The translations under genes were made by a program, and so were the position numbers. Shown in pieces: positions 1 through 45,981 of a DNA stretch of 64,000 nucleotides. A model generated the notes under the pieces. The model saw only the letters and a program-made list of their open reading frames with translations, was not told the origin of the DNA and searched no databases. The stretch comes from Squalus acanthias (taxonomy: Eukaryota), in NCBI GenBank assembly GCA_030390025.1, contig CM059453.1, positions 7,130,001-7,194,000 on the forward strand, in the 5' to 3' direction. The first letter of the stretch is position 1. The number at the start of each line of letters is the position of its first letter.

Positions 1-2244
1 CAGGAGGTTAAAGGCTGCAACAGCCGCTGTGTCTAGTGGGAATGTGCTGGCCTTCAGTAGAGGTTGGATTCGGTCCGAGAAGTTAGGAATCCATTTAGCA
101 TAGTATGCAAACAGGCCGAGGGCTCGGCGCAAGGAGGCTGGATTCTTAGGTGGCGGGAGTTCTTGGAGTGGGCGAAGCCTTTCAGGGTCAGGTTTAATGA
201 TGCCATTGCCCACACAATAGCCAAGGATGTTGATGGTTGGTTGTGACTCAATGGATTTAGCCGCATTTAATGTCAAATTACGGTGCTGGAGTGCATCCCA
301 AAATCGTTGGAGATTGGCGTCATGTTCCCGCTGATTGCGACCTGCGACAGTAATATTGTCCAGATAAGGAAACGTATCCTTTAAGTCTACCTGTTTGACC
401 AGGTCATCCATTGCTCGCTGGAAGACAGCCACTCCATTAGTGACCCCAAAGGGGAGGCGACGAAATTGATACAGCCGTCCATTGGCTTCAAAGGCCGTAT
501 ACTGCTTGTCTGAGACCTTCAAGGGTACCTGATGATAGGCACTTTTCAGATCATATGTTGAGAACACCGTGTACTCAGCCAGTTTATTAACCATATCATC
601 GATGCGCGGCAATGGGTATGCGTCCAAGTCCGTATATTGATTGATGGTCTGTGAATAGTCAATGCACAGCCGTTTCTTGTGAGGTTGTAGAGGGTTCTTA
701 ACAATAACGACCTGGGCGCGCCATGGCGACGAACAAGGCTCGATGATATCCTCTGCTAAAAACCGAGAAATCTCAGCCGCAATAAAAGACTGGTCTTCCT
801 GACTGAAACGTCGTGACTTTGTTATAATCGGTTTGCATCGAGGAGGGATACTGGTAAACAGTGAGGGTTCATCCAGTGAAGCTGCTGACAATGCACAGAA
901 CGGTAATCGAGGTCGTATATTAGAAATAGTGAGTTCAGGTTTGGATCCGCCGAACTCAATGGTGAGCTTCTTATGCTGCTTTTGAAAATCTAGCCCTAAG
1001 ATAAGATCACTACATAAGTCCTTGAGCACCGAAAGCCGGGTGGAGGGAAACCTGTGACCATTAAGTGTTATTTCAACCATACAAAAGCCAGAAATTCTGG
1101 TATTAAGTGATGACTGAGCCATCGCAATTGCCTGGTCCGATGGGAAAACATGTAGCTTTAACTCTGCAACAATCTGTTCCCTAATGAAACTATCAGTGCT
1201 ACCTGAGTCAATTAAGGCATCTAAAGTATGTCCATTAATTGATGCTTTTGTAGCTGCATGGAATAGGTTCTGAGGACAAGCAGCTGTAATTGGTGTCGTT
1301 GCACAAAGAGTGGCTGAAACTCTAGGTGTGTTTCTTCGAGAGAAAACCCGAGAGGAAGCACGATAGATTTTAGCCGGAACATCTTGATAGGCCCTTACCG
1401 GGGCAGTTCGGTAGGACTTAGCTTGATAAGCCCTCGTAGAGGCTCTTGATAGGCAAACCTTTGCAAAATGACCCTTTTTGTTGCAATGACTGCAAAACGC
1501 ATTGCGAGCAGGGCAGAATTTCCGAGGGTGAAACTCATCACCACAAAAGAAGCATTTCTTAGATTGCCAAGAGGCTGCCACAGTGGGATCATCATCCTCT
1601 TCATCAGTGAAGTCATCAGATTGATCGTCAGGGATAAAGTCCTCCCTAATAGAGTTCACCTGTGGCCTCTTAAATTGCCTGACTGTAGTTAAGGCAGCAG
1701 ACCGAGGTCTGGGCACTGTATAAAGGTCTGCATTTCTTTTTGCCAGATCTAGAGAGCAAGCCATGTCATAAGCTCTCTGAAGCTCAAGTGTCTTACTTTC
1801 CAGTAGACGCTGGCGTATAAATGGGGAGGCAAGCCCGCAGATGAAAGCATCACGGATCATTTCTTCACGGTACAGCTCAGCTGAGGCCGCCTGAAAGTTA
1901 CAGTCCATACTAAGTCTGCGAAGCTCTTGGAGGAATTTATCAATGGATTCCTCCGGCCCTTGTTGGGCTGTAGCTAGTAGATGTCTGGCATAGACCTCAT
2001 TCGCTGTCTTAGTATATAGTCTTTTAAGCGTCCGAATTGCCTCCTCGTAACTGCCCCATTCCTCGACATACTGAAATACATTCGGGGTGACACAGTTGAT
2101 GAGTATCCGCAATTTTGAGTCATCATCAGCCTTGCAATATTCGAGAAAATTGTCAAACGTGCGATACCAGTGTTTCCACACCTTACCGGCTGCTGGGGTG
2201 TTTGGGTCCAAGTCAAGACGCGATGGTTTAAGGATGTTTTCCAT
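1..2244 (-). CDS. Gypsy LTR retrotransposon 1 gag-pol polyprotein, running off the left edge
   Basis: Starts MENILKPSRLDLDPNTPAAGKVWKHWYRTFDNF. Contains a zinc knuckle (CFFCGDEFHPRKFC...CSHCNKKGHFAKVC), protease LIDSG and RT PYLDNI. Spot-checked codons at 2244, 1560, 366 and 3 are in one frame, and the ORF track reports no stop-terminated ORF in that frame. Confidence 0.9.
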   Translation of the reverse strand, partial: MENILKPSRLDLDPNTPAAGKVWKHWYRTFDNFLEYCKADDDSKLRILINCVTPNVFQYVEEWGSYEEAIRTLKRLYTKTANEVYARHLLATAQQGPEESIDKFLQELRRLSMDCNFQAASAELYREEMIRDAFICGLASPFIRQRLLESKTLELQRAYDMACSLDLAKRNADLYTVPRPRSAALTTVRQFKRPQVNSIREDFIPDDQSDDFTDEEDDDPTVAASWQSKKCFFCGDEFHPRKFCPARNAFCSHCNKKGHFAKVCLSRASTRAYQAKSYRTAPVRAYQDVPAKIYRASSRVFSRRNTPRVSATLCATTPITAACPQNLFHAATKASINGHTLDALIDSGSTDSFIREQIVAELKLHVFPSDQAIAMAQSSLNTRISGFCMVEITLNGHRFPSTRLSVLKDLCSDLILGLDFQKQHKKLTIEFGGSKPELTISNIRPRLPFCALSAASLDEPSLFTSIPPRCKPIITKSRRFSQEDQSFIAAEISRFLAEDIIEPCSSPWRAQVVIVKNPLQPHKKRLCIDYSQTINQYTDLDAYPLPRIDDMVNKLAEYTVFSTYDLKSAYHQVPLKVSDKQYTAFEANGRLYQFRRLPFGVTNGVAVFQRAMDDLVKQVDLKDTFPYLDNITVAGRNQREHDANLQRFWDALQHRNLTLNAAKSIESQPTINILGYCVGNGIIKPDPERLRPLQELPPPKNPASLRRALGLFAYYAKWIPNFSDRIQPLLKASTFPLDTAAVAAFNLL

Positions 2245-2322
2245 GATGGGAGATTCCCTGGATCCTTAGTTCCGAGTTCGTCCAAAAAGTTTGAGTGCGA
2301 AGATTTTCAAAGTTGATTAAAT

Positions 2323-2516
2323 TGTCGTAAGAATGAGCCTTACGCGTGGTGAACTTAAAGTAAGCTTTAATCAACTAAAAAGGTGCTACATACAAAAGAG
2401 GTCTTACTCTATGCCTCTCCAGGATCCAACTGATCAGCCCAGTATTTATCCTGGACTAATCACAGGAAGTGATGTAATAAAGTTCGAGTCACAGGAAGCT
2501 GTATTGTGTTACCACA
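2323..2516 (-). mobile_element. 5' LTR of Gypsy element 1 (194 bp, TG...CA)
   Basis: On the minus strand it reads TGTGGTAAC...CTTACGACA with GATAAATA and ATTAAA, upstream of gag. It interrupts a CR1 RT fragment that resumes at 2517. Confidence 0.8.
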
Positions 2517-9485: not shown

Positions 9486-9860
9486 AGGACAAATTCCTTC
9501 CTTTGGCTAATATCAGTGTATACAAATCTTAGGTGGGATGTTGGGTGATCTACCTCATGGACACTGTTATCCCCTTGGAACTCGTTTTGTTCATCTTCGG
9601 GGTCGGAGAAGAATTTTGCAGATTACTGAATTGGCCGAGTGCTGTTTACATATGTTTGCCTCCCGCGAGAGGTTGCAATGTGGTGAGAGGGAATACTGTC
9701 GTCATGGTGCATTGTTGCGTCTTGACTGTTTTGGATAGGCTCATTGACCAGTCGATTATTTCCTGTTCGTCTTTTCAGACGACTGTATGTTCCAAAGCTC
9801 AGAATGAGTCCCTCCCTGAGTGAGAACAATGAAAAATGATCAGAGAAGCGAGAAAGAGGG

Positions 9861-12800
9861 TGTCATAAATCGCAAGTAACAACTCAGGAAGTACTACTGT
9901 GTGGCCAGCTGGGGCGCCGTCCAGGGAGTATAAATACTCAGGCATGGGCCCACCTTGGGCAGAGACAATCTGGAAACAGGAAGCTAGTGACTGCTAACTA
10001 GACCTCCATGTTTTGTTACAAGTTGATTAAAGCCTTGCTTTATGTTCAAGTGCGTAGTGAGTCTTTATTACGTCAATTTAATCAACTTGATATCGTCTCC
10101 ACGCTTTGGGTGATTCGGAACAACCAGCTGCAACTCGAACCACAGAAGGGAACTTGGGCAAGAAACTGATCCATCATGGAAAAACTCCTTAGACCCGCTC
10201 GTCTCGACCTGGACCCGAATGCACCTGCGGCAGCAAAGGTATGGAAGCATTGGTTTCGTACCTTTAGCAACTTTCTTGAAGAATGTGGGGCGGATGTCCC
10301 TAATAAGTTACGAATGCTTATCAACTACGTGTCTCCTCATGTGTATGATTATATTGAGGACTGTATAGACTATGACACTGCTATCGAAATCTTACAGCAG
10401 CTATATGTCAAGTCCCCAAATGAAATCATTGCTTGACACCTACTGGCCACAACTCGGCAGCAGCCTGGGGAATCACTCGATGAATTTCTCCAGAAACTTC
10501 GCAGGCTCAGCAAGGATTGTAACCTTAAAGCAGTTTCAGCTGAACAGTATCAAGAGGAACTAATCCGCGATTCCTTTATCAATGGAATCACGTCCCCTTT
10601 TATACGTCAGCGCCTGCTGGAAAATAAAACGCTCAATTTACGGGCTGCTTATGACCAGGCGTGTTCCTTGGACTTGGCCAAGAAAAATGCAGACACTTAT
10701 CTCCCACCACGTGCACGGGCGGCGGCTATCTCCTTTAATGAGTCTTTCGGTAGGTCTCGGGCGGATGCCCCCACTGATGTTGACTCTACTCTAACAGACG
10801 ACGACCCTACCCTAGAGGCCTTCGCTGATGACGACCCCGCCCTAGCAGCATCTTGGCAATCAGGAAGAAAGTGTTTCTTTTGTGGAGGGGCGGCCATCAC
10901 AGAAAATTTTGCCCGGCTCGTAATGTGACCTGCAATCATTGCAGCAAGAAAGGACACTTTTCCAAGTTATGCCAGTCACGGGCCTCTGCTAACAAGAAAG
11001 GCCGCTCCTCTAAAGTATACCGGTCGAGAGCTCCTGTTAGCTTCACAGCTGCTATCTATGGAGCTGCTCCTCCCCCAGGAACCACTGTTAAGGCTGCAGT
11101 TGCCGAAGGGAAAATTGCCCCTCCTCCCATCACGGCTGTTTTTCCCCAAAGTTTGTCCCATGCAGCCACGAAGGTTTCAGTAAATGGGCACACTCTAAGT
11201 GCGCTAATCGACTCCTGCAGCTCTGACAGCTTCATTAGTAAGCGGGCTGTCAACACGTTAAAACTGCACATTTATCCCTCGGACAGGGAGATTGCAATGG
11301 CTCTGACGACTCTGACCACCAATTCTTCTGGCTTCTGTCTGGTCAACCTCATCCTCAACGGCCGCACGTATCTCTCCACCCGGCTCGGAGTACTCACAAA
11401 CTTATGCAGCGATGTGCTTCTGGGACAGAACTTCCAGAAGCAGCACAAGAAGATCACTTTTGAGTTTGGAGGGTCAAGGCCGGAGCTTACCATTTCTAAG
11501 GTGCCGTTTTGTGCACTCTCGGCGGCCTTACTCGGTGAACCCTCCCTGTTTGCCAATCTTCCCCCCCGCTGTAAACCCATAGCCACCAAATCGCGGCGCT
11601 TTAGCCAAGATGATCGAGCGTTTATTGAGGCGGAAATCTCTCGCCTTTTAGTCGACGGTATTATCGAGCAATGTTCATCTCCCTGGCGGGCTCAGGTCGT
11701 CATCGTGAGGAATCCCTTAAAACAAAATAAAAAACGTCTGTGTATCGATTATTCGCAGACTATTAATCTATATACCGATCTGGATGCCTACCCGCTGCCA
11801 CGCATAGATGACATGGTCAACAACCTTGCCAAATACAAGGTATTCTCGACCTTCGATTTAAAAAGCGCGTACCATCAGGTGCCACTGCAAGACTCCGACA
11901 AGAAGTATACGGCCTTTGAGGCCAATGGTCGGCTTTTCCAGTTTCACCGCCTTCCATTCGGGGTCACCAATGGGGTGGCCGTCTTCCAACGGGCCATGGA
12001 TGGCCTAGTCCGGCAAGAGAACTTGACGGATACCTTTCCGTATTTAGACAATATCACTATTGCCGGCCATGATCAAAAGGAGCATGACGCCAATCTTCAG
12101 AGATTTTTTGACGCACTCCGCCGTCGCCACTTAACATTAAACGAATCCAAATCGGTGAAGTCGGTGCCATCGGTGAACATTCTTGGCTGCTGGGTGGGCA
12201 ACGGTGTTATTAAACCAGACCCAGAGCGACTTCGTCCACTTCAGGAGCTCCCTCCCCCGACGAACCTCGGCTCTCTTCGTCGGGCACTTGGCATGTTTGC
12301 TTATTACGCAAAATGGATACCACACTTCTCCGATAAAATACAGCCCCTGCTCCATGCAAAGTCTTTTCCATTGGAAGCTATGGCTATTTCTGCCTTCAAC
12401 CTCCTCAAACGACAGCTGGAGAAAGCCACGCTTCGCTCCATTGACTAAAATCTTCCTTTTGTGGTCGAATGCGATGCATCGGAGGTGGCGATCTCCGCTA
12501 CCTTGAATCAAGGTGGCCGACCCGTGGCATTCCTATCCAGAACCTTGCAGGGTAGCGAGCTCCATTACCCCCCCCCCCCGTCGAGAAGGAGGCTACGGCC
12601 ATCATCGAGGCTGTACGCCAATGGGGTCATTTTCTTGCTCGGCGTCATTTTACGCTTATAACTGACCAGCGCTCTGTGGCCTTCATGTTGGATAACCGGA
12701 GGCGCACGAAAATCAAAAATAATAAAATTCAACTCTGGAGGATGGAGCTGGCTGCCTTTGGATATACTATCTGTTACCGACCCGGCAAACAGAACGTGGC

Positions 12801-14374
12801 CCCAGATACCTTCACACGGGCATTTTGCTCCTCAATGTCAACGTCGACTCTGGCGGATTTGCATATGGACTTATGCCATCCTGGTGTGACCCGCATGTTG
12901 CACATTGTGCGCTCCAAAAATCTACCATTTTCAACCGAGGACGTAAAGAAAACATGCTCCTCCTGTAGGATTTGTGCAGAATTGAAACCACAATTCTTTC
13001 GCCCATCAGATGGCTTACTCATACATGCAATGCAGCCTATGCAGAGGCTCAGCATAGACTTTAAAGGGCCATTGCCTTCGTCGACAAGGAACACCTACCT
13101 ACTTACGATGGTGGACGAGTATTCACGCTTTCCCTTCGCCTTCCCCTGCCCTAATATGCTTACCTCTACAGTAATTAAATGCCTCGATCAGGTCTTTTCC
13201 CTTTGCGGGACGGCCAATTTTATCCACACTGATCGGGGTCCCTCCTTTATGTCGAGTGAACTTAAAAGTTATCTCTCCCAACGGGGAATCGCCTCAAGTA
13301 GGACGACACCATATCACCCAATCGGTAACGGACAGGTTGAACGATACAATGCCATCATCTGGAACGCTGTCCGTCTGGCACTAAGGTCACGCAACCTGCC
13401 GGACCAGCAGTGGGAAACGGTGCTCCCCGACGCGTTACACTCTATCAGGTCTCTTCTCTCCACATCTACTAATGTCACGCCTCATGAGCGATTCTTCAAA
13501 TTCCGGCGTCGCTCTACACATGGGACGTCTCTACCGTCATGGTTGGTGGCTCCAGGCCCGGTACTACTCCGGAGGTTCGTCCGGTCTGCCAAAAACGACC
13601 CTCTCCTTGACGAGGTGGAGTTAACGGAGTTAAACCCCACGTATGCGCACGTACGTTACCCTGATGGCCGGGAGACCACCGTCTCGCTCCGAGATCTGGC
13701 TCCCTGCCCAACCGGTCACACGGGCCCGAATGATGAAGGATCCCCCGACAATGATATCAACACTCCGCACCCCTATGAAAATGACGCCCCGCCTGGGACA
13801 TCGGGGGATCTGCCGGCAACGCTACCGGATCAACTCAGGGAGCTGGACGCTCCCCGTAGGATGGCCACCCGAAACCAGGACGCCGGACAATCTCCAGCCA
13901 CGACCCGGGATGAGGCCAGCTCAGCACCTGTGGGGACCCGCACCCGGAGTCATGATATTCCCAGTCCTCCACAGGATGATCAAGATGACGCGGACTCTAC
14001 TGACTTACCGGTACGGGCCAAGCGACCCAGGGACCAGGACATGGTCCGGGGAGACGTGCCTTCCAGTCACAAGCAGAGAGCTAAACGTCTGCGGCTATTT
14101 CTGGTCCGCTTAGTCCGTTAAAGGAAGACTGGACTTCCAAACCTGTTAGGGAGGAAGAATGTCATAAATCGCAAGTAACAACTCAGGAAGTACTACTGGG
14201 TGGCCAGCTGGGGCGCCGTCCAGGGAGTATAAATACTCAGGCATGGGCCCACCTTGGGCAGAGACAATCTGGAAACAGGAAGCTAGTGACTGCTAACTAG
14301 ACCTCCATGTTTTGTTACAAGTTGATTAAAGCCTTGCTTTATGTTCAAGTGCGTAGTGAGTCTTTATTACGTCA
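9861..14374 (+). mobile_element. Full-length Gypsy LTR retrotransposon 2 (4514 bp)
   Basis: 215-bp LTRs at 9861-10075 and 14160-14374 (TG...CA, one mismatch T9900/G14199). 5-bp TSD GAGGG at 9856-9860 and 14375-14379. Polypurine tract AGGGAGGAAGAA at 14148-14159. Order gag-PR-RT-RH-IN. Confidence 0.97.
10176..14121 (+). pseudogene. Disrupted gag-pol of Gypsy element 2
   Basis: Gag, zinc knuckle, LIDSC protease, YLDN RT, RNase H ECDAS and integrase (HPG..CxxC, IDF/TDRG/VER). Broken by TGA at 10434, a 1-nt deletion near 10890, TAA at 12446 and a poly-C frameshift near 12568-12579. Confidence 0.92.
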
Positions 14375-14452
14375 GAGGGTTATTCTGATCGAGGAAGCGC
14401 CCTCATACCCGTATCACTTGCTCCCTCTCTTATCCACTCCTTTCTGTTACAG

Positions 14453-20325: not shown

Positions 20326-20825
20326 AATTCATCTGTCAACTCTGAGCACTCATTTTGCAGTACAGTTTAAACACAGAGCTGCAAACACAACAAGTCATTT
20401 CAAGATGCAGCATAGTGTATAAGCGGATGGTGCCTCATCACATATAAACTCATTCTGGTTCCATTGTCCAGAATGATTCACACCCAAGAACGTCACAGAT
20501 AGCAGCAGGCTGACGGCTGTTGTAACCACAGCTACAGGGGCTCTAAATAGAACCCAGCACTTCACACCTCTGCGCTGGTGCTATACCGGCACACGGTGTA
20601 AGTAAATCCACCTCGGTGCAGCCACACTGAATGAGACACTGAGCAGACACCAAGGAACATTCTGTGTTAACCATGAACTTTGTCCCGAAGTTGACCACAC
20701 ATCACATCACCTGACGTTCTCAAAGCCAACTGGGTCTTGTTTGGGGCATAATTGAGCAGAATGCACTGCACCAACCTCCACTCTGGGATTGACCAGACAT
20801 TCGGCATCATCTGTGGTTAATACAA

Positions 20826-21500
20826 AACTGGGCCCTGGAGCTGAACACATATCCCTAATTGAGTCCCTAAAACCCAACTGGGCCCTGGATCTGCACAGAC
20901 ATTTCTCATCCAGACAGTCAAAACCAAGCGGTGGCCTGGATTGAACACACATTCAATAAACTAGTCAAGAAACAACCAAAAGAAAAAGCAATAAAAAAAC
21001 AAGTGCAGTCCTCAATCTGAACACACATCCCTAAATGTGTCCATAAAACCCAAAGGGTCTCTGGGCCTGAACATATATATTTCATACTAGTCACTAAAGC
21101 CAAGCTGAGACCTGGGTCTGAACACACATCCCTAAACTAGTCAGTAAACCAAGCAGAGATCTGGGTCTGAACAGATATCCCTAAACTAGTCAGTAAAGCC
21201 AAGCTGAGACCTGGTTCTGAACACACATCCCTAAACTAGTCAGTAAAGCCAAGCTGAGACCTGGGTCTGAACACACATCCCTAAACTAGTCAGTCAAACA
21301 AAACTTGGCCCGCAAAGTGAATAGAAAAACAAACAAACTAGGCCCTGGATCTGTACCCAAGCCCAACAACACACACACACATAAAGCAACGGGTGTCCCC
21401 ACTTATGCTATTATCATTTTATTTGTTTAACAAGAAAAACTGGGCCCTGGAACTGAACGCACATCCATAAACTAACTTGTAAATCCAGTCTGTGACATGG
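20826..21500. repeat. About 50-bp minisatellite
   Basis: Unit CTGAACACACATCCCTAAACTAGTCAGTAAAGCCAAGCTGAGACCTGGGT, best conserved at 21060-21295 and degenerate on both sides. Confidence 0.85.
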
Positions 21501-22010: not shown

Positions 22011-25000
22011 AGAAAAAATAAGTAATTTGCTCAGGAAATTGTAATCGATTTCAGATTTAGAATTGTGAAAATGGAAAAGAGTGAGTTGTTCAAACTGCAC
22101 GAGGCTCATCCGAGGTGCTTTACTGAGATCTATAAGGTAAGGTATCGATTGATCACTAACCCCTTCATGGTAGCAGTGATACGGTCCTCTTATCTTCCAA
22201 CTAATCTGAACTAATTCTGCTTCTTAATCTGATTCCAAATGCGCCCAGTTTGAAGCTGGACTGTGTTCGAATGAGGTTCCCGTTTGTATCCAGGATTTGA
22301 TCCCACTGATCAATTTGCAGGCATTTCACCCGTAGATAAAAATATCCACATTGTTTCCAGCAGCATTAACACACTAATCTGAAAGCTCACGACACACGTC
22401 AAAGTTCTAGCACTAAAGTCAGAATCTTCATAAACACGTCATTGTAGCAACTCGGATCTCAATGAGTTAATTTCAGCAGATTTCATCTCGCTGGACTGTT
22501 AATTTAAGCAGCTGAAGTCACTTCTGAAAATGGCACTTTAAAAACTTGAAACTGTTTACTGATAAACTCTTTCGTATCTTTTGACATTTCAGATACGTGT
22601 TGTGTCCCCGAACTTCTGAAGGTGATCAACCCACACGTCTGCAGACAACGGCTACAGGACTAACCACAGCTTCACACTTAAAACACTCGCAGTTCAAGGG
22701 CTGATAAATAGCTCAGTGTTTGGGAGTTGTTTGTCGGGGCTTCTAAAGCTGGTGGAGAGTCCAGGTTAGATATTGCCATCTGAAGTAACATATACCCTAC
22801 AATTAGTGTCAGCACCGATTGTAAGAAAATTAGCTGAGCGGGTGAATGATTATTGGTCGCGTGGACGCTGCAACTTGCCCGTGTGCATTTCACTCTTACT
22901 GACTCTCATTCACTTATTTAATATCATTGAGGGAGTGGAAAAACCACGAGGCACTCCCGAGAAGGCACTGTTTGCTTTCCGGAATTCCCAAACCCAGAGA
23001 TAGTCCAGAGAAATTGGCATTGCACCGGGACTGCATGTTCAATTTAGTGCGTATATATCCTAGAATGTTAAAAACAGTCACATTCAGAAAGTCACATGGT
23101 GTATTCCTGCTGGACAATTATCATCCTCTGTACCGATTGAACATTCCTCAGTTCTTATATTGTGTTTCCATTCACTGCCCGATGATATTTTATATGTTGT
23201 AACAGCCTTGTACTAACTGGTTTGTAAGCCAGTGATCCTCATCCTGCAATGTGGGCCTCTGTTGTCTCGTCAGGGCTTCTTCTTTCTGGCTTTACTAAAC
23301 AGTTTGATTACCTTCCGTTTTCAATTCTGATTAATTCTTTACAAAAAATGTTCACTGATATCTTCATCCAACAGATAGCGACTGACCTGTTTTGCCTTGT
23401 CAACGGTTCCTGGTGCTCTACAAGGCTTTGGTTGCCCGGGATGTTCAGGAGCCCTGATCTATCTGTCGCGGCTGCCGAGCCCCTCTTCTGGTAAGCTTCA
23501 GAAAAAGCCGGAGTATTAAATATCTTTCCTGTGTGGAGAAGTCCAATTAGTATGAATAGAACGCTCAACATATTGTAATGGGAGAGCGCCAGAAAAATAA
23601 GCAATTTCCTCAAGAAAGTGTTACGGATTTCAGATTTAGAATTGTGAAAATGGAAAAGCGTGAGATGTTCAAACTGCACGAGGTTCATCCGAGGAGCTTT
23701 ACTGAGATCTATAAGGTAAGGTAGCGATTGATCACTTACCCCTTCATGGTAGCAGTGATACGGTCCTCTTATCTTCCAACTAATCTGAACTGATTCTGCT
23801 TCATAATCTGATTCCAAATGCGCCCAGTTTGAAGCTGGACTGTGTGCGAAAGAGGTTCCCGTATGGATCCAGGATTTGAGCCCAATGATCAATTTGCAGG
23901 CATTTCTTACTGTAGATAAATATATCCACATTGTTTCCAGCAGCATTGACAGTCCAATCTAAATGCTCAATCACACCTCACAGTTCTAGCACTGAAGTCA
24001 GAATCTTCATAAACCCGTCATTGTAGCAACTCGGGTCTCAATGAGTTAATTTCAGCAGATTTCATCTCGCTGCAGTGTCAGTATAAACAGCTGAAGTCAC
24101 TTTTAAAAATGGCACTTTACCCACTTGAAACTGTTTACTGATAAACTCCTTTGTATCGTTTGACATTTCAGATACGTGTTGTGTCCACGAACTACTGAAG
24201 GTGATCAACCCACATGTCTGCAGACAACGGCTACAGGACTAACCACAGCTTCACACTTCAAACACTCACAGTGCAAGGGCTGATAAATAGCTCAGTGTGT
24301 GGGAGTTGTGAGTCGGGGCTTCTAAAGCTGGTGGAGAGACGATTTTAGATATTGCAATCTAAAGTACCATATACCCTACAATTATTGTCAGCACCGATTG
24401 TAAGACAATTAGTTGAGCGGGTGAATGACTATTGGTCGCGTGGACGCTGCAACTTGCCCGTAGCATTTCACTCTCACTGACTCTCATTCACTTATAAATA
24501 TCCTTGAGGGAGTGGAATAACCACGAGGCACACCCGCGAAGGCACTGTTTGCTTTCCGGAATTCCCAATCCCAGAGATAGTCCAGAGAAATTGGCATTGC
24601 ACCGGGACTGCATGTTCAATTTAGTGCGTGTATATCCTGGAATGTTAAAAACAGTCACATTCAGAAAGTCACATGGTGTGTTCCTGCTGGACAATTATCA
24701 TCCTCTGTACCGAGTGCACATTCCTCAGTTCCTATATTGTATTTCCATTCACTGCCCGATGATATGTAATATGTTATAACAGCCTTGTACTAACTGGTTT
24801 GTAAGCCAGTGATCCCCATCCTGTAATGTGGGCCTCTGTTGTCTCGTCAGGGCTTCTTCTTTCTCGCTTTACAAAACAGTTTGACAATCTTTGGTTTTCA
24901 ATTCTGCTGTATTCTTCTCCAAAATATTCACTGATATCTTCACCCCACAGACAGCAACTGACCTGTTTTGCCTTTTCAACAGTTCCGGGTGTTCTACAAG

Positions 25001-25898
25001 GCTTTGTGTGCCCGGGATGTTCAAGAGCCCTGATTTATCAGTCGCGGCTGCCGAGCCCCTCTCATTGTGTGCGTTGGAAAAACCCAGATAATTAAATATC
25101 TTTCCTGTGTGAAGAAGTCCAATTAGTATGAATAGAACGCTCAACATATTGTAATGGGGGAGCGGCAGAAAAATAAGCAATTTCCTCAGGAAAGTATAAC
25201 GGATTTCAGATTTAGAATTGTGAAAATGGGAAAGATGAGTTGTTCAAACTGCACGAGGCTCATCCGAGGTGCTTTACTGAGATCTATAAGCTAAGGTAGC
25301 GATTGATCACTAACCCCTTCATTGTAGCAGTGATACGGTCCTCTTATCTTCCAACTAATCTGGACTGATTCTGCTTCTTAATCTGATTCCAATTGCGCCC
25401 AGTTTGTATTCAGGATTTCATTCCATTGATCAATCCGCAGAGATTTGTTCCCGTAGATAAAAAAAATATCCATGTTGTTTCCAGCAGCATTGGCACTTCA
25501 ATCTAAAAGATCAAGACACACCTCTCAGTTCCAGCACTAAAGTCAGAAATTTTATAATCTCGGATCTCAATGAGTTAATTTCAGCAGATTTCATCTCGCT
25601 GCAGTGTCAGTATAAACAATTGAAGTGACTTCTAAAAATGGCACTTTACCCACTTGAAACTCTTGAAAGATAAACTCTTTTGTGTCTTTTGACATTTCAG
25701 ATACGTGTTGTGCCCCCGAACTACTGAAGGTGATCAACCCACACGTCTGCAGACAACGGCTGCAGAGCTAACCACAGCTTCACACTTCAAAGACTCGCAG
25801 TTCAAGGGCTGTTAAATAGCTCCGTGTGTGGGAGTTGGGAGTCGGGGCGTCGAAAGCTGGTGGAGAGGCTATTTTAGATATTGCAATCTAAAGTGCCA
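22011..25898. repeat. Tandem repeat of an about 1.58-kb unit (about 2.5 copies)
   Basis: AGAAAAATAAG(C/T)AATTT(C/G)CTCA recurs at about 22011, 23591 and 25168 with colinear internal sequence. The ORF pair 22927/24504 has offset 1577. Confidence 0.92.
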
Positions 25899-40354: not shown

Positions 40355-41960
40355 CAGAAAGGCTTGCATTTCTATAGCGCCTTTCAGGACATCCCAAAGT
40401 TCTTTACAGCCAATTAAGTACTTTTGAAGTGTGGTCACTGTTGTAATGTAGGAAATGTGGCAGCCAGTATGCGCACAGCAAGCTCCCAAAAACCCCAATG
40501 TGATAATGACCAGATCGTCTGTTTCTGTTATGTTGACAGAGGGATAAATATTGGGCCCAAGACACCGGGGAGAACTCCCCCTGCTCATCCTCGAAATAGT
40601 GGCCTTGGGATCGTTTACGTCCACCTGAGAGAGCAGACGGTTTAATGGCTCCTCTGAAACACGGTACCTCCAACAGTGCGGCGCTCCCTCAGCACTGCCC
40701 CTAAGACCGTGCAGCGCTCCCTCAGTACTGCCCCTCCGACAGTGCAGCACTCCCTCAGTACCGCTCCTCCGACAGTGCGGCGCTCCCTCAGTACTGCCCC
40801 TCCGACAGTGCAGCGCTCCCTCAGTACTGCCCCTCCGACAGTGCGGCGCTCCCTCAGTACAACCCCTCAGACATTGCAGCAGTCCCTCATTATTGCCCCT
40901 CCGACAGAGTAGTGCTTCCCCAGCACTGCCCCTCCGACAATGCAGCGCTTCCTCAGTACTGCCCCTCCGACAGTGCAGCAATCCCTCAGAACTGCCCCCC
41001 CGAAAGTGCAGCGCTCCCTCATTACTGCCCCTCCGACAGTGTGGCACCTACTCAGTACAACCCCTCCGACAGTGCAGCGCTCCCTGAGTACTGCCCCTCC
41101 GACGGTGCGGCGCTCCCTCAGGACTGTCCCTCCGACAGTGCGGCACTCTCTCAGTACTGCCCCTCCGACAGTGCAGCACTCCCTCAGAACTGCCCCTCCA
41201 ACAGTGCAGTGCTCCCTCAGTACTGCCATTCCGACAGTGCAGCGCTCCCTCAGTACTGCCCCTTCGACAGTGCAGCGCTTCCTCAGTACTGCCCCTCCGA
41301 CAGTGCGGCGCTCCCTCAGTACTGCGCCTCCGACAGTGCAGCGCTCCCTCAGTACTGCCCCTCCGACAGTGCGGCGCTCCCTCAGTACTGCCCCTCCGAC
41401 AGTGCAGCGCTCCCTCAGTACTGCCCCTCTGACAGTGCAGCGCTCCCTCAGTACTGCCCCTCCGACAGTGCAGCACTCCCTCAGAACTGCCCCTCCAACA
41501 GTGCAGTGCTCCCTCAGTACTGCCATTTCGGCATTGCAGCGCCCCCTCAGTACTGCCCCTCCGACAGTGCAGCGCTTCCTCAGTACTGCCCCTCCGACAG
41601 TGCGGCGCTCCCTCAGTACTGCCCCTCCGACAGTGCAGCGCTCCCTCAGTACTGCCCCTCCGACAGTACGGCGCTCCCTCAGTACTGCCCCTCCGACAGT
41701 GCAGCGCTCCCTCAGTACTGCCCGTCCGACAGTGCAGCGCTCCCTCAGTACTGCCCCTCCGACAGTGCAGCGCTCCCTCAGTACTGCCCCTCCGACAGTG
41801 CGGCGCTCCCTCAGTACTGCCCCTCCGACAGTGCGGCACTCCCTCAGTACTGCCCCTCTGACAGTGCAGCGCTCCCTCAGTACTGCCCCTCTGACAGTGC
41901 AGCGCTCCCTCAGTACTGCACTGGAGTGTCAGCCTAGATTTTTGTGCTCAAGTCTCTGGA
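40355..41960 (-). mobile_element. Deu-domain SINE with an internal minisatellite expansion
   Basis: Colinear with 36605-37295 on both sides of the array. Confidence 0.8.
40674..41925. repeat. 33-bp minisatellite, about 38 copies
   Basis: Unit CAGTGCAGCGCTCCCTCAGTACTGCCCCTCCGA. Confidence 0.97.
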
Positions 41961-42061
41961 GGGGACCCCACCCTATTATGTTGTTAAATAGCCCTGCCGG
42001 ATACCGTTGAGTCTCTCTGTCGGTTGTGGAGTTAGATGTGCAAACTATCGCAGGCCAGTGT

Positions 42062-45589: not shown

Positions 45590-45603
45590 CTGCAACAGAA
45601 ACA

Positions 45604-45858
45604 ACACGTGCAGCGTATAAAAGAGGACACGTGGTACAGATACAGAAATAAAACGGGGTACAGGTAGACAAAGAAAACTTGGTACAGATACACCAAGAAC
45701 ACGTGGTACCGATCCAATAAGAACACGTGGTACAGATACACAAAAGACACGGGATACAGGTACACCAAGGACACGTGTTACAGATCCAATAAGAACACGT
45801 TGTACAGATAGACAAAGAACACGTGGTACAGATACACAAAGAACACGTGGTACAGCGA
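45604..45858. repeat. 24-bp minisatellite, about 10 copies
   Basis: Unit GAACACGTGGTACAGATACACAAA. Confidence 0.9.
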
Positions 45859-45981
45859 TACCAAGAAGGTTTTCTGCTTCGATTTTAACAGAATCAATTT
45901 TGCAAACACAAAATAGGGGGATAGAGAGACTCACACTGGTCTCTCTTACCTTTACATTCTGTGTGTTAGCGACATGTAAAT

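Follow-up and report, generated by a model that had tools for sequence, protein, structure and literature searches.

Self-priming of reverse transcription has been described for Ty3/Gypsy elements of the Tf1/sushi chromovirus group (10.1101/2022.12.06.519325, PMC4600332, PMC5341516, PMC6934838, PMC3601003, as far as the accessible parts of these papers go), and in the literature read self-priming among Gypsy elements is tied to that group. Tf1 and Tf2 of S. pombe, Tj1 of S. japonicus and sushi resemble the lineage described here in lacking a tRNA site and in having a post-LTR site that complements their own LTR, and according to the accessible text the primer of Tf1/Tf2 and Tj1 arises by cutting of this LTR stretch (10.1101/2022.12.06.519325, PMC4600332, PMC5341516). 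In the part of a further paper that was available, self-priming is predicted for plant Tcn1 (gypsy) and TAR/Houba/Osr-1 (copia), with complementarity of at least 10 bp located 0–5 bp after the LTR (PMC6317226). These are likewise proposed outside Tf1/sushi on the same kind of evidence, and differ from the present lineage in their plant hosts and in having a chromovirus or copia RT.

The window, which is the whole 64,000 nt stretch of Squalus acanthias DNA analysed, contains at 9861–14374 a young Ty3/Gypsy element that probably primes minus-strand synthesis with a stretch of its own RNA rather than with a tRNA, as judged from sequence comparison. The TG...CA LTRs (215 bp, one mismatch within the pair), the 5-bp target duplication, the polypurine tract and the pol order protease, RT, RNase H, integrase identify it as Ty3/Gypsy (Metaviridae), and the best solved-structure match to its RT is the Ty3 RT (E 2e-34). 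The features of the element are as follows.

9856–9860, plus strand: left target-site duplication, GAGGG
9861–10075, plus strand: 5′ LTR, 215 bp, TG...CA, 1 mismatch relative to the 3′ LTR
9929–9936, plus strand: TATA-like box, with the paired segment 90 nt downstream and a start predicted near 9958–9962
10019–10031, plus strand: likely self-primer segment, its last six bases being the poly(A)-signal-like ATTAAA
10030/10031 or 10031/10032, plus strand: predicted cut in or at the self-primer segment
10052–10073, plus strand: predicted U5 hairpin of 9 bp, adjoining the primer site
10077–10089, plus strand: primer-binding-site position, complement of 10019–10031, without TGG
10090, plus strand: first base beyond the duplex, unusually variable among copies
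10176–14121, plus strand: gag-pol, with two CCHC knuckles, protease, RT, RNase H plus integrase
12041–12052, plus strand: RT active-site motif YLDN, aligning to YLDD of the Ty3 RT
14148–14159, plus strand: polypurine tract
14160–14374, plus strand: 3′ LTR
14375–14379, plus strand: right target-site duplication, GAGGG

The family of this element is young and large, with 696 junction matches in the genome, and many sister copies have a single open frame of approximately 1315 aa. The gag-pol of the window copy is broken by stops at 10434–10436 and 12446–12448 and by frameshifts near 10890 and 12570, and neither a chromodomain nor an env was present in the window ORFs examined. Another copy approximately 154 kb away (L002, G000:C30:6985886) has an identical left flank and early stop, and the locus was therefore probably duplicated.

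The segment CAAGTTGATTAAA (10019–10031) is the exact reverse complement of TTTAATCAACTTG (10077–10089) over 13 nt, with 45 nt in between, which agrees with the original prediction, and the stem cannot be extended at either side. The 5′ LTR ends with CA at 10075 and is followed by a single A (10076) and then by the primer-site position, where the TGG is absent, again as claimed from the first inspection of the sequence. The pairing was placed correctly, but the duplex begins with CAAG at 10019, two bases before the AGTT that had been proposed as the transcription start. None of 2000 dinucleotide shuffles of the LTR matched the first post-LTR bases at such length. Folding of 10015–10095, which had been proposed as a check, gave −20.4 kcal/mol (z −3.74), with 1/200 shuffles equally good, and the pairing was present in all of the 30 best copies of the window family, these copies having been chosen by likeness to the query. 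We also detected a second element of the same lineage on the minus strand, from 2516 to below position 1, which bears out the plural in the original prediction of self-priming Gypsy elements and carries an 11-bp version of the pairing.

2323–2516, minus strand: 5′ LTR of the second element (family 2), whose RT is 77% identical, with the paired segment at 2376–2366
2311–2321, minus strand: primer-site position of the second element, an 11-bp complement of its own LTR

This second element (window 1–2516) sits inside a LINE-like repeat. Its family has 2165 junction matches in the genome and a duplex of only 11–12 bp. One further locus (L341) has a 5′ LTR without the paired segment and an intact primer site.

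A scan of metagenome contigs yielded 80 loci related to the window element, 13 of which have an LTR pair around the RT; these 13 are spread over five contig sets, with a single assembly supplying eight of them. In all 13 the first post-LTR bases match the element's own LTR over 11–17 bp, and the pairing is kept in different letters at an RT identity of 45–54%. In a cross matrix the primer sites matched the LTR of their own element but no LTR of another sequence type, and nine or more distinct primer-site sequences agree with the LTR that they belong to, down to single-base subfamily changes. When 10 sequence types were placed in a 13-bp register, 127 of the 130 cells were Watson-Crick pairs and 8 of the 13 pairs changed on both sides, with AG and the final AAA being invariant, so that the covariation proposed as a check was indeed found; the total of 127 was reached in 0 of 10000 row shuffles, a control which ignores relatedness. 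Within the genome of S. acanthias itself, 20 stretches were fetched and 17 had a usable LTR pair, with 16 of these displaying an exact match of 11–13 bp and an old copy (L124) having no exact match. Four Gypsy elements of the YLDD lineage in the same genome (RT identity 27–30% to the window lineage) have TGG-type sites, and the match of these to their own LTR reaches just 4 bp.

Matching changes were also detected within families, as self-priming predicts, the primer being copied into the site during plus-strand synthesis. In a third host family (283 matches) the duplex is 12 bp long, with a matching change on both sides, and one copy (L061) departs from three sister copies at the paired position in its primer site as well as in its two LTRs. 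A sister subfamily (36 copies), to which a variant in a contig run pointed, was selected solely by a G for A at one primer-site position, and among the 30 copies fetched the partner position of the 5′ LTR was C in 21, T in 8 and G in 1. Thirteen of these copies lack the exact C-form 11-mer; a 3′ LTR was within range in 11 of the 13, nine of which have the C form there, which argues that most of the discordance is CpG decay after insertion. Two copies have T in both LTRs. The pairing is thus real and conserved, and very likely functional.

Rearranged inserts were obtained from two of 30 loci examined and from all four matches of a targeted pattern. Two of them, L323 (249 bp, perfect 5-bp target duplication GGGGT) and L353 (348 bp, perfect 5-bp target duplication CGCAC), are members of two different families, and both start with the reverse complement of the LTR 3′ end (inverted U5/R), although the searches that yielded them did not use this left part. 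The inverted piece extends over the whole part of the LTR that lies 3′ of the paired segment and over one base more, after which it departs from the LTR; next come a template switch, the end of U5, the primer site and an inverted U3. The left ends look like minus-strand strong-stop DNA made on an RNA template that ended at the 3′ edge of the segment, as would be expected if the RNA was cut there; a tRNA-primed strong-stop would continue to the cap site. By rough arithmetic, with ends free to lie at any place along the approximately 115 nt back to the TATA-predicted start, the chance of two ends falling within one base of the edge is about 0.001. Cutting of the RNA at the 3′ edge of the primer by the RNase H of the RT is a Tf1/sushi trait; the two inserts end one base inside the segment, whichever enzyme may have made the cut. 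The extra T that they carry points to cutting at 10030/10031, with a spacer of 2 nt then left following the CA of the LTR, although an untemplated T may also explain it. The argument from these fossils draws on two inserts, a small sample. Three further events (L331, L352 and L354/L355) join an LTR and primer site to an inverted U3, as would be expected for plus-strand DNA that ended in the primer site and then folded back. L331 spans 390 bp, bears two U3 ends and shows a 5-bp duplication in which one base does not match, while L354 and L355 are near-identical neighbours on the same contig. A search with a like pattern for fold-back inserts in family 2 gave 0 matches. In L334 an internal deletion has brought the RNase H region right up against the end of the primer site.

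The covariation, the compensated sister subfamily, the TGG-type controls and the two inserts ending at the predicted cut all support the original proposal of self-priming. In the mechanism that we envisage, the RNA would fold so that 10019–10031 pairs with 10077–10089. Cleavage would follow at the segment's 3′ edge (10030/31 or 10031/32), with the element's own RNase H as the probable enzyme, as in Tf1. The new 3′ end would then be extended by RT across U5 and the short remainder of R, and later plus-strand synthesis would copy the primer back into the primer site, which would keep segment and site in register and may leave an error-prone base beyond the duplex. The primer could be either the capped RNA 5′ terminus or a piece from within the RNA, preceded by a leader of approximately 60 nt.

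Given self-priming, an upstream start with an internal primer has in our judgement a slightly better than even chance. A TATA-like box is located upstream of the register, by 90 nt in family 1 and by 72–73 nt in family 2, and the block around it (9926–9957) is common to related elements in other contig runs. Set against the original prediction of a start at AGTT are this box, the beginning of the duplex two nt earlier, and the pairing of 16–17 nt in three relatives (L050, L057 and L047), which goes beyond a start at AGT. A Tf1-like arrangement, in which transcription begins at 10019–10021, give or take a base or two, and the capped RNA 5′ end is the primer, falls somewhat short of an even chance and is a serious contender nonetheless. 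The AG located 11 nt from the segment's 3′ end is invariant in all ten sequence types, the duplexes of the host families begin at a C-A or T-A step, the variable base tracks the duplex end, and in six metagenome sequence types of invertebrate type there is no TATA-like box upstream; against it stand the box in the host families, with its shared surrounding block, and the longer pairings. In the single raw-read run examined, 0 reads fell on the stretch.

In 30 subfamily copies the base directly after the duplex takes all four forms (A, G, C, T) or is missing, and its entropy is the highest of all 1408 columns. The 92 listed copies of the main family have G there in 19 cases and A in 73, with the neighbouring positions varying in no more than two of these copies, and approximately ten other sites in this family are equally polymorphic. 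In the 12-bp family the variable base is located one place further in (G 20, A 8, T 2 of 30), and in family 2a it is found four places beyond the duplex. By analogy with Tf1, whose RT adds untemplated bases to cDNA ends (PMC11042837, in the part available), this variation fits an error-prone junction at the far end of the primer, and would fit a cap or a cut end equally. Use of the variable base as a marker of the start site was dropped, as capped and trimmed or cut ends fit alike and the base is offset in family 2a. The suggestion that RT geometry alone sets the 13 bp (the active sites of Ty3 RT are approximately 13 bp apart in the accessible text of PMC5371799) was also rejected, as it leaves the 12-bp family unexplained.

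Alternatively, the hairpin may only regulate 3′-end formation by hiding the poly(A) signal of the 5′ LTR, with another molecule acting as primer, which we regard as improbable. The paired segment does end in an A-rich hexamer in every family (ATTAAA, AATAAA, GTTAAA or TTAAAA), and folding predicts the AUUAAA to be paired in the 5′ LTR. Folding predicts the hexamer to be mostly paired in the 3′ LTR too, and so gives no support to the earlier suggestion that the signal is masked only in the 5′ LTR. Furthermore, the partner always begins a single base past the LTR, at the position required of a primer, there is no TGG at that place, and both of the rearranged inserts end at the paired segment. 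The two roles can be compatible with each other.

Priming by a tRNA half or another small host RNA, with the LTR match being secondary, is very unlikely. Half-tRNA priming exists in copia-type elements (PMC6317226, in the part available), and the comparison of the primer site with tRNAs, a check proposed with the original prediction, was a narrow one, covering only tRNA-Lys(TTT) and tRNA-Cys from 30 loci. The longest match to these was 5–6 nt, and a host RNA would have to account for the nine or more primer-site sequences that each track their own LTR down to single-base changes. A chance inverted repeat in an AT-rich segment, or a one-off rearrangement inherited by one family, is scarcely credible and is refuted by the covariation, with 0–1 of 2000 shuffles per family as good across families and pairing in different letters at 45–55% RT identity.

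Named relatives of the window element were found in crustaceans, cnidarians, tunicates, a mollusc, a spider and an aphid, and a scan of viral contigs for relatives found none. The 120 full-length relatives listed have a mean length of 1196 aa, and two CCHC knuckles are present in 92 of these; the chromodomain PF00385 was listed for none of these 120 and was detected in the control P0343. A quick RT tree of 72 rows placed all 38 rows of the lineage together (SH-aLRT 100), separately from 12 chromovirus-type rows of algae and plants (support 99). The lineage was weakly sister to Mag-like rows (support 80–89, on a long stem and with no named reference sequences), a label which we assign from sequence motifs. 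The RT trees are quick trees without Tf1, sushi, Cigr-1 or named Mag sequences, and retrovirus-like RTs from an SH3 search served as outgroup only. When the lineage and the chromoviruses were forced into one clade (33 rows), the tree was 15.4 log-likelihood units worse, with p-AU 0.075, and was not rejected. A position outside the chromoviruses, as originally suggested, is supported by the missing chromodomain and the separate RT clade, but the AU test leaves a joint clade unrejected; the RT phylogeny proposed as a check gave a well-supported clade in a tree without Tf1 and sushi. Chromovirus controls in the genome of S. acanthias comprised 16 chromodomain matches, none with an adjoining integrase.

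The size of the element and its single ORF of approximately 1200 codons resemble, we presume, those of Cigr-1 of Ciona. Clades named Cigr-1 and MolGy appear in PMC6238403, whose accessible text says nothing of primer sites. Mag typically has two CCHC arrays (PMC2577118, in the part available), as in the window lineage, whereas the Mag-like elements of the same genome have TGG-type sites and an RT identity of 27–30%. Kuafuorterviruses (Troyka) were considered and rejected, as they have an IADD/VADD/LADD motif and a length of 5–6 kb (PMC11673190, in the part available) versus YLDN and 4.0–4.5 kb here. Another young Gypsy family (L178–L196) has a 1335-aa open frame, a TGG-type site and an LTR end of AA rather than CA.

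The last place of the YxDD motif is N in 83 of 120 RT-region matches listed (D in 22, no call in 15), and in 71 of the 120 full-length relatives listed (D in 39, no call in 10). The N is nested inside the clade in the tree, with D again in some members, and self-pairing is therefore older than the change to YxDN; members with YLDD, such as L075, also pair, so self-pairing and YxDN are not tied. In the accessible text on the yeast elements, the D214N change in Ty3 RT retains polymerase activity and is lethal to transposition (PMC5371799), and D211N in Ty1 abolishes transposition, with partial rescue by RNase H suppressors (PMC2148107). The families with YxDN nonetheless include copies with identical LTRs. 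A natural YVDN is reported in nematode BEL/Pao elements Cer7-12 and Atlas (PMC554778, PMC9094657, in the parts available), which share with the window lineage the Asp-to-Asn change at the last place of YXDD and differ in belonging to another superfamily. No Ty3/Gypsy case of a natural YxDN was found in the literature searched.

Elsewhere in the window, tandem arrays were observed at 40535–42010 (33-bp unit), 45602–45912 (24-bp unit), 22014–25800 (unit of approximately 1.58 kb) and 20809–21487 (unit of approximately 50 bp). A dispersed SINE-like repeat is present in eight copies (2968, 3237, 9033, 15229, 31552, 32286, 36730 and 54060), which we take to resemble the HER1 type of cartilaginous fish.

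The window element would work like Tf1 self-priming and fails the chromodomain test for the Tf1/sushi group. Compared with Tf1/sushi, its lineage is without a chromodomain, has two CCHC knuckles and forms a separate RT clade; its duplex is mostly 13 bp and ends in a poly(A)-signal-like hexamer, most members have YxDN, and the primer may be internal. Structure prediction gives a central duplex with local hairpins in the loop, the structure described for Tf1/sushi being a pretzel of three duplexes. Our search of open papers did not find a self-primed animal Gypsy clade other than chromoviruses, and the clade may already have an entry in repeat databases such as Repbase, Dfam or GyDB. Taking all observations together, we tentatively propose, at rather less than even confidence, a widespread clade of animal Gypsy elements that would self-prime apart from the chromoviruses, using an internal piece of R with the poly(A) signal as primer and a YxDN RT that would be dead in Ty1 or Ty3, with integrated by-products mapping the cut to the base.

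If true, this would be a second large clade, in animals, and independence from tRNA would then have arisen more than once or would be old, and annotation tools that seek a tRNA site would miss or misfile such elements. Through the integrated by-products, genome sequence by itself can serve to locate the sites of priming and cleavage. Finally, a clade that was mobile recently and has Asn where the third catalytic Asp would stand provides a natural case for the question raised by Ty1 D211N and Ty3 D214N, which polymerise without transposition.
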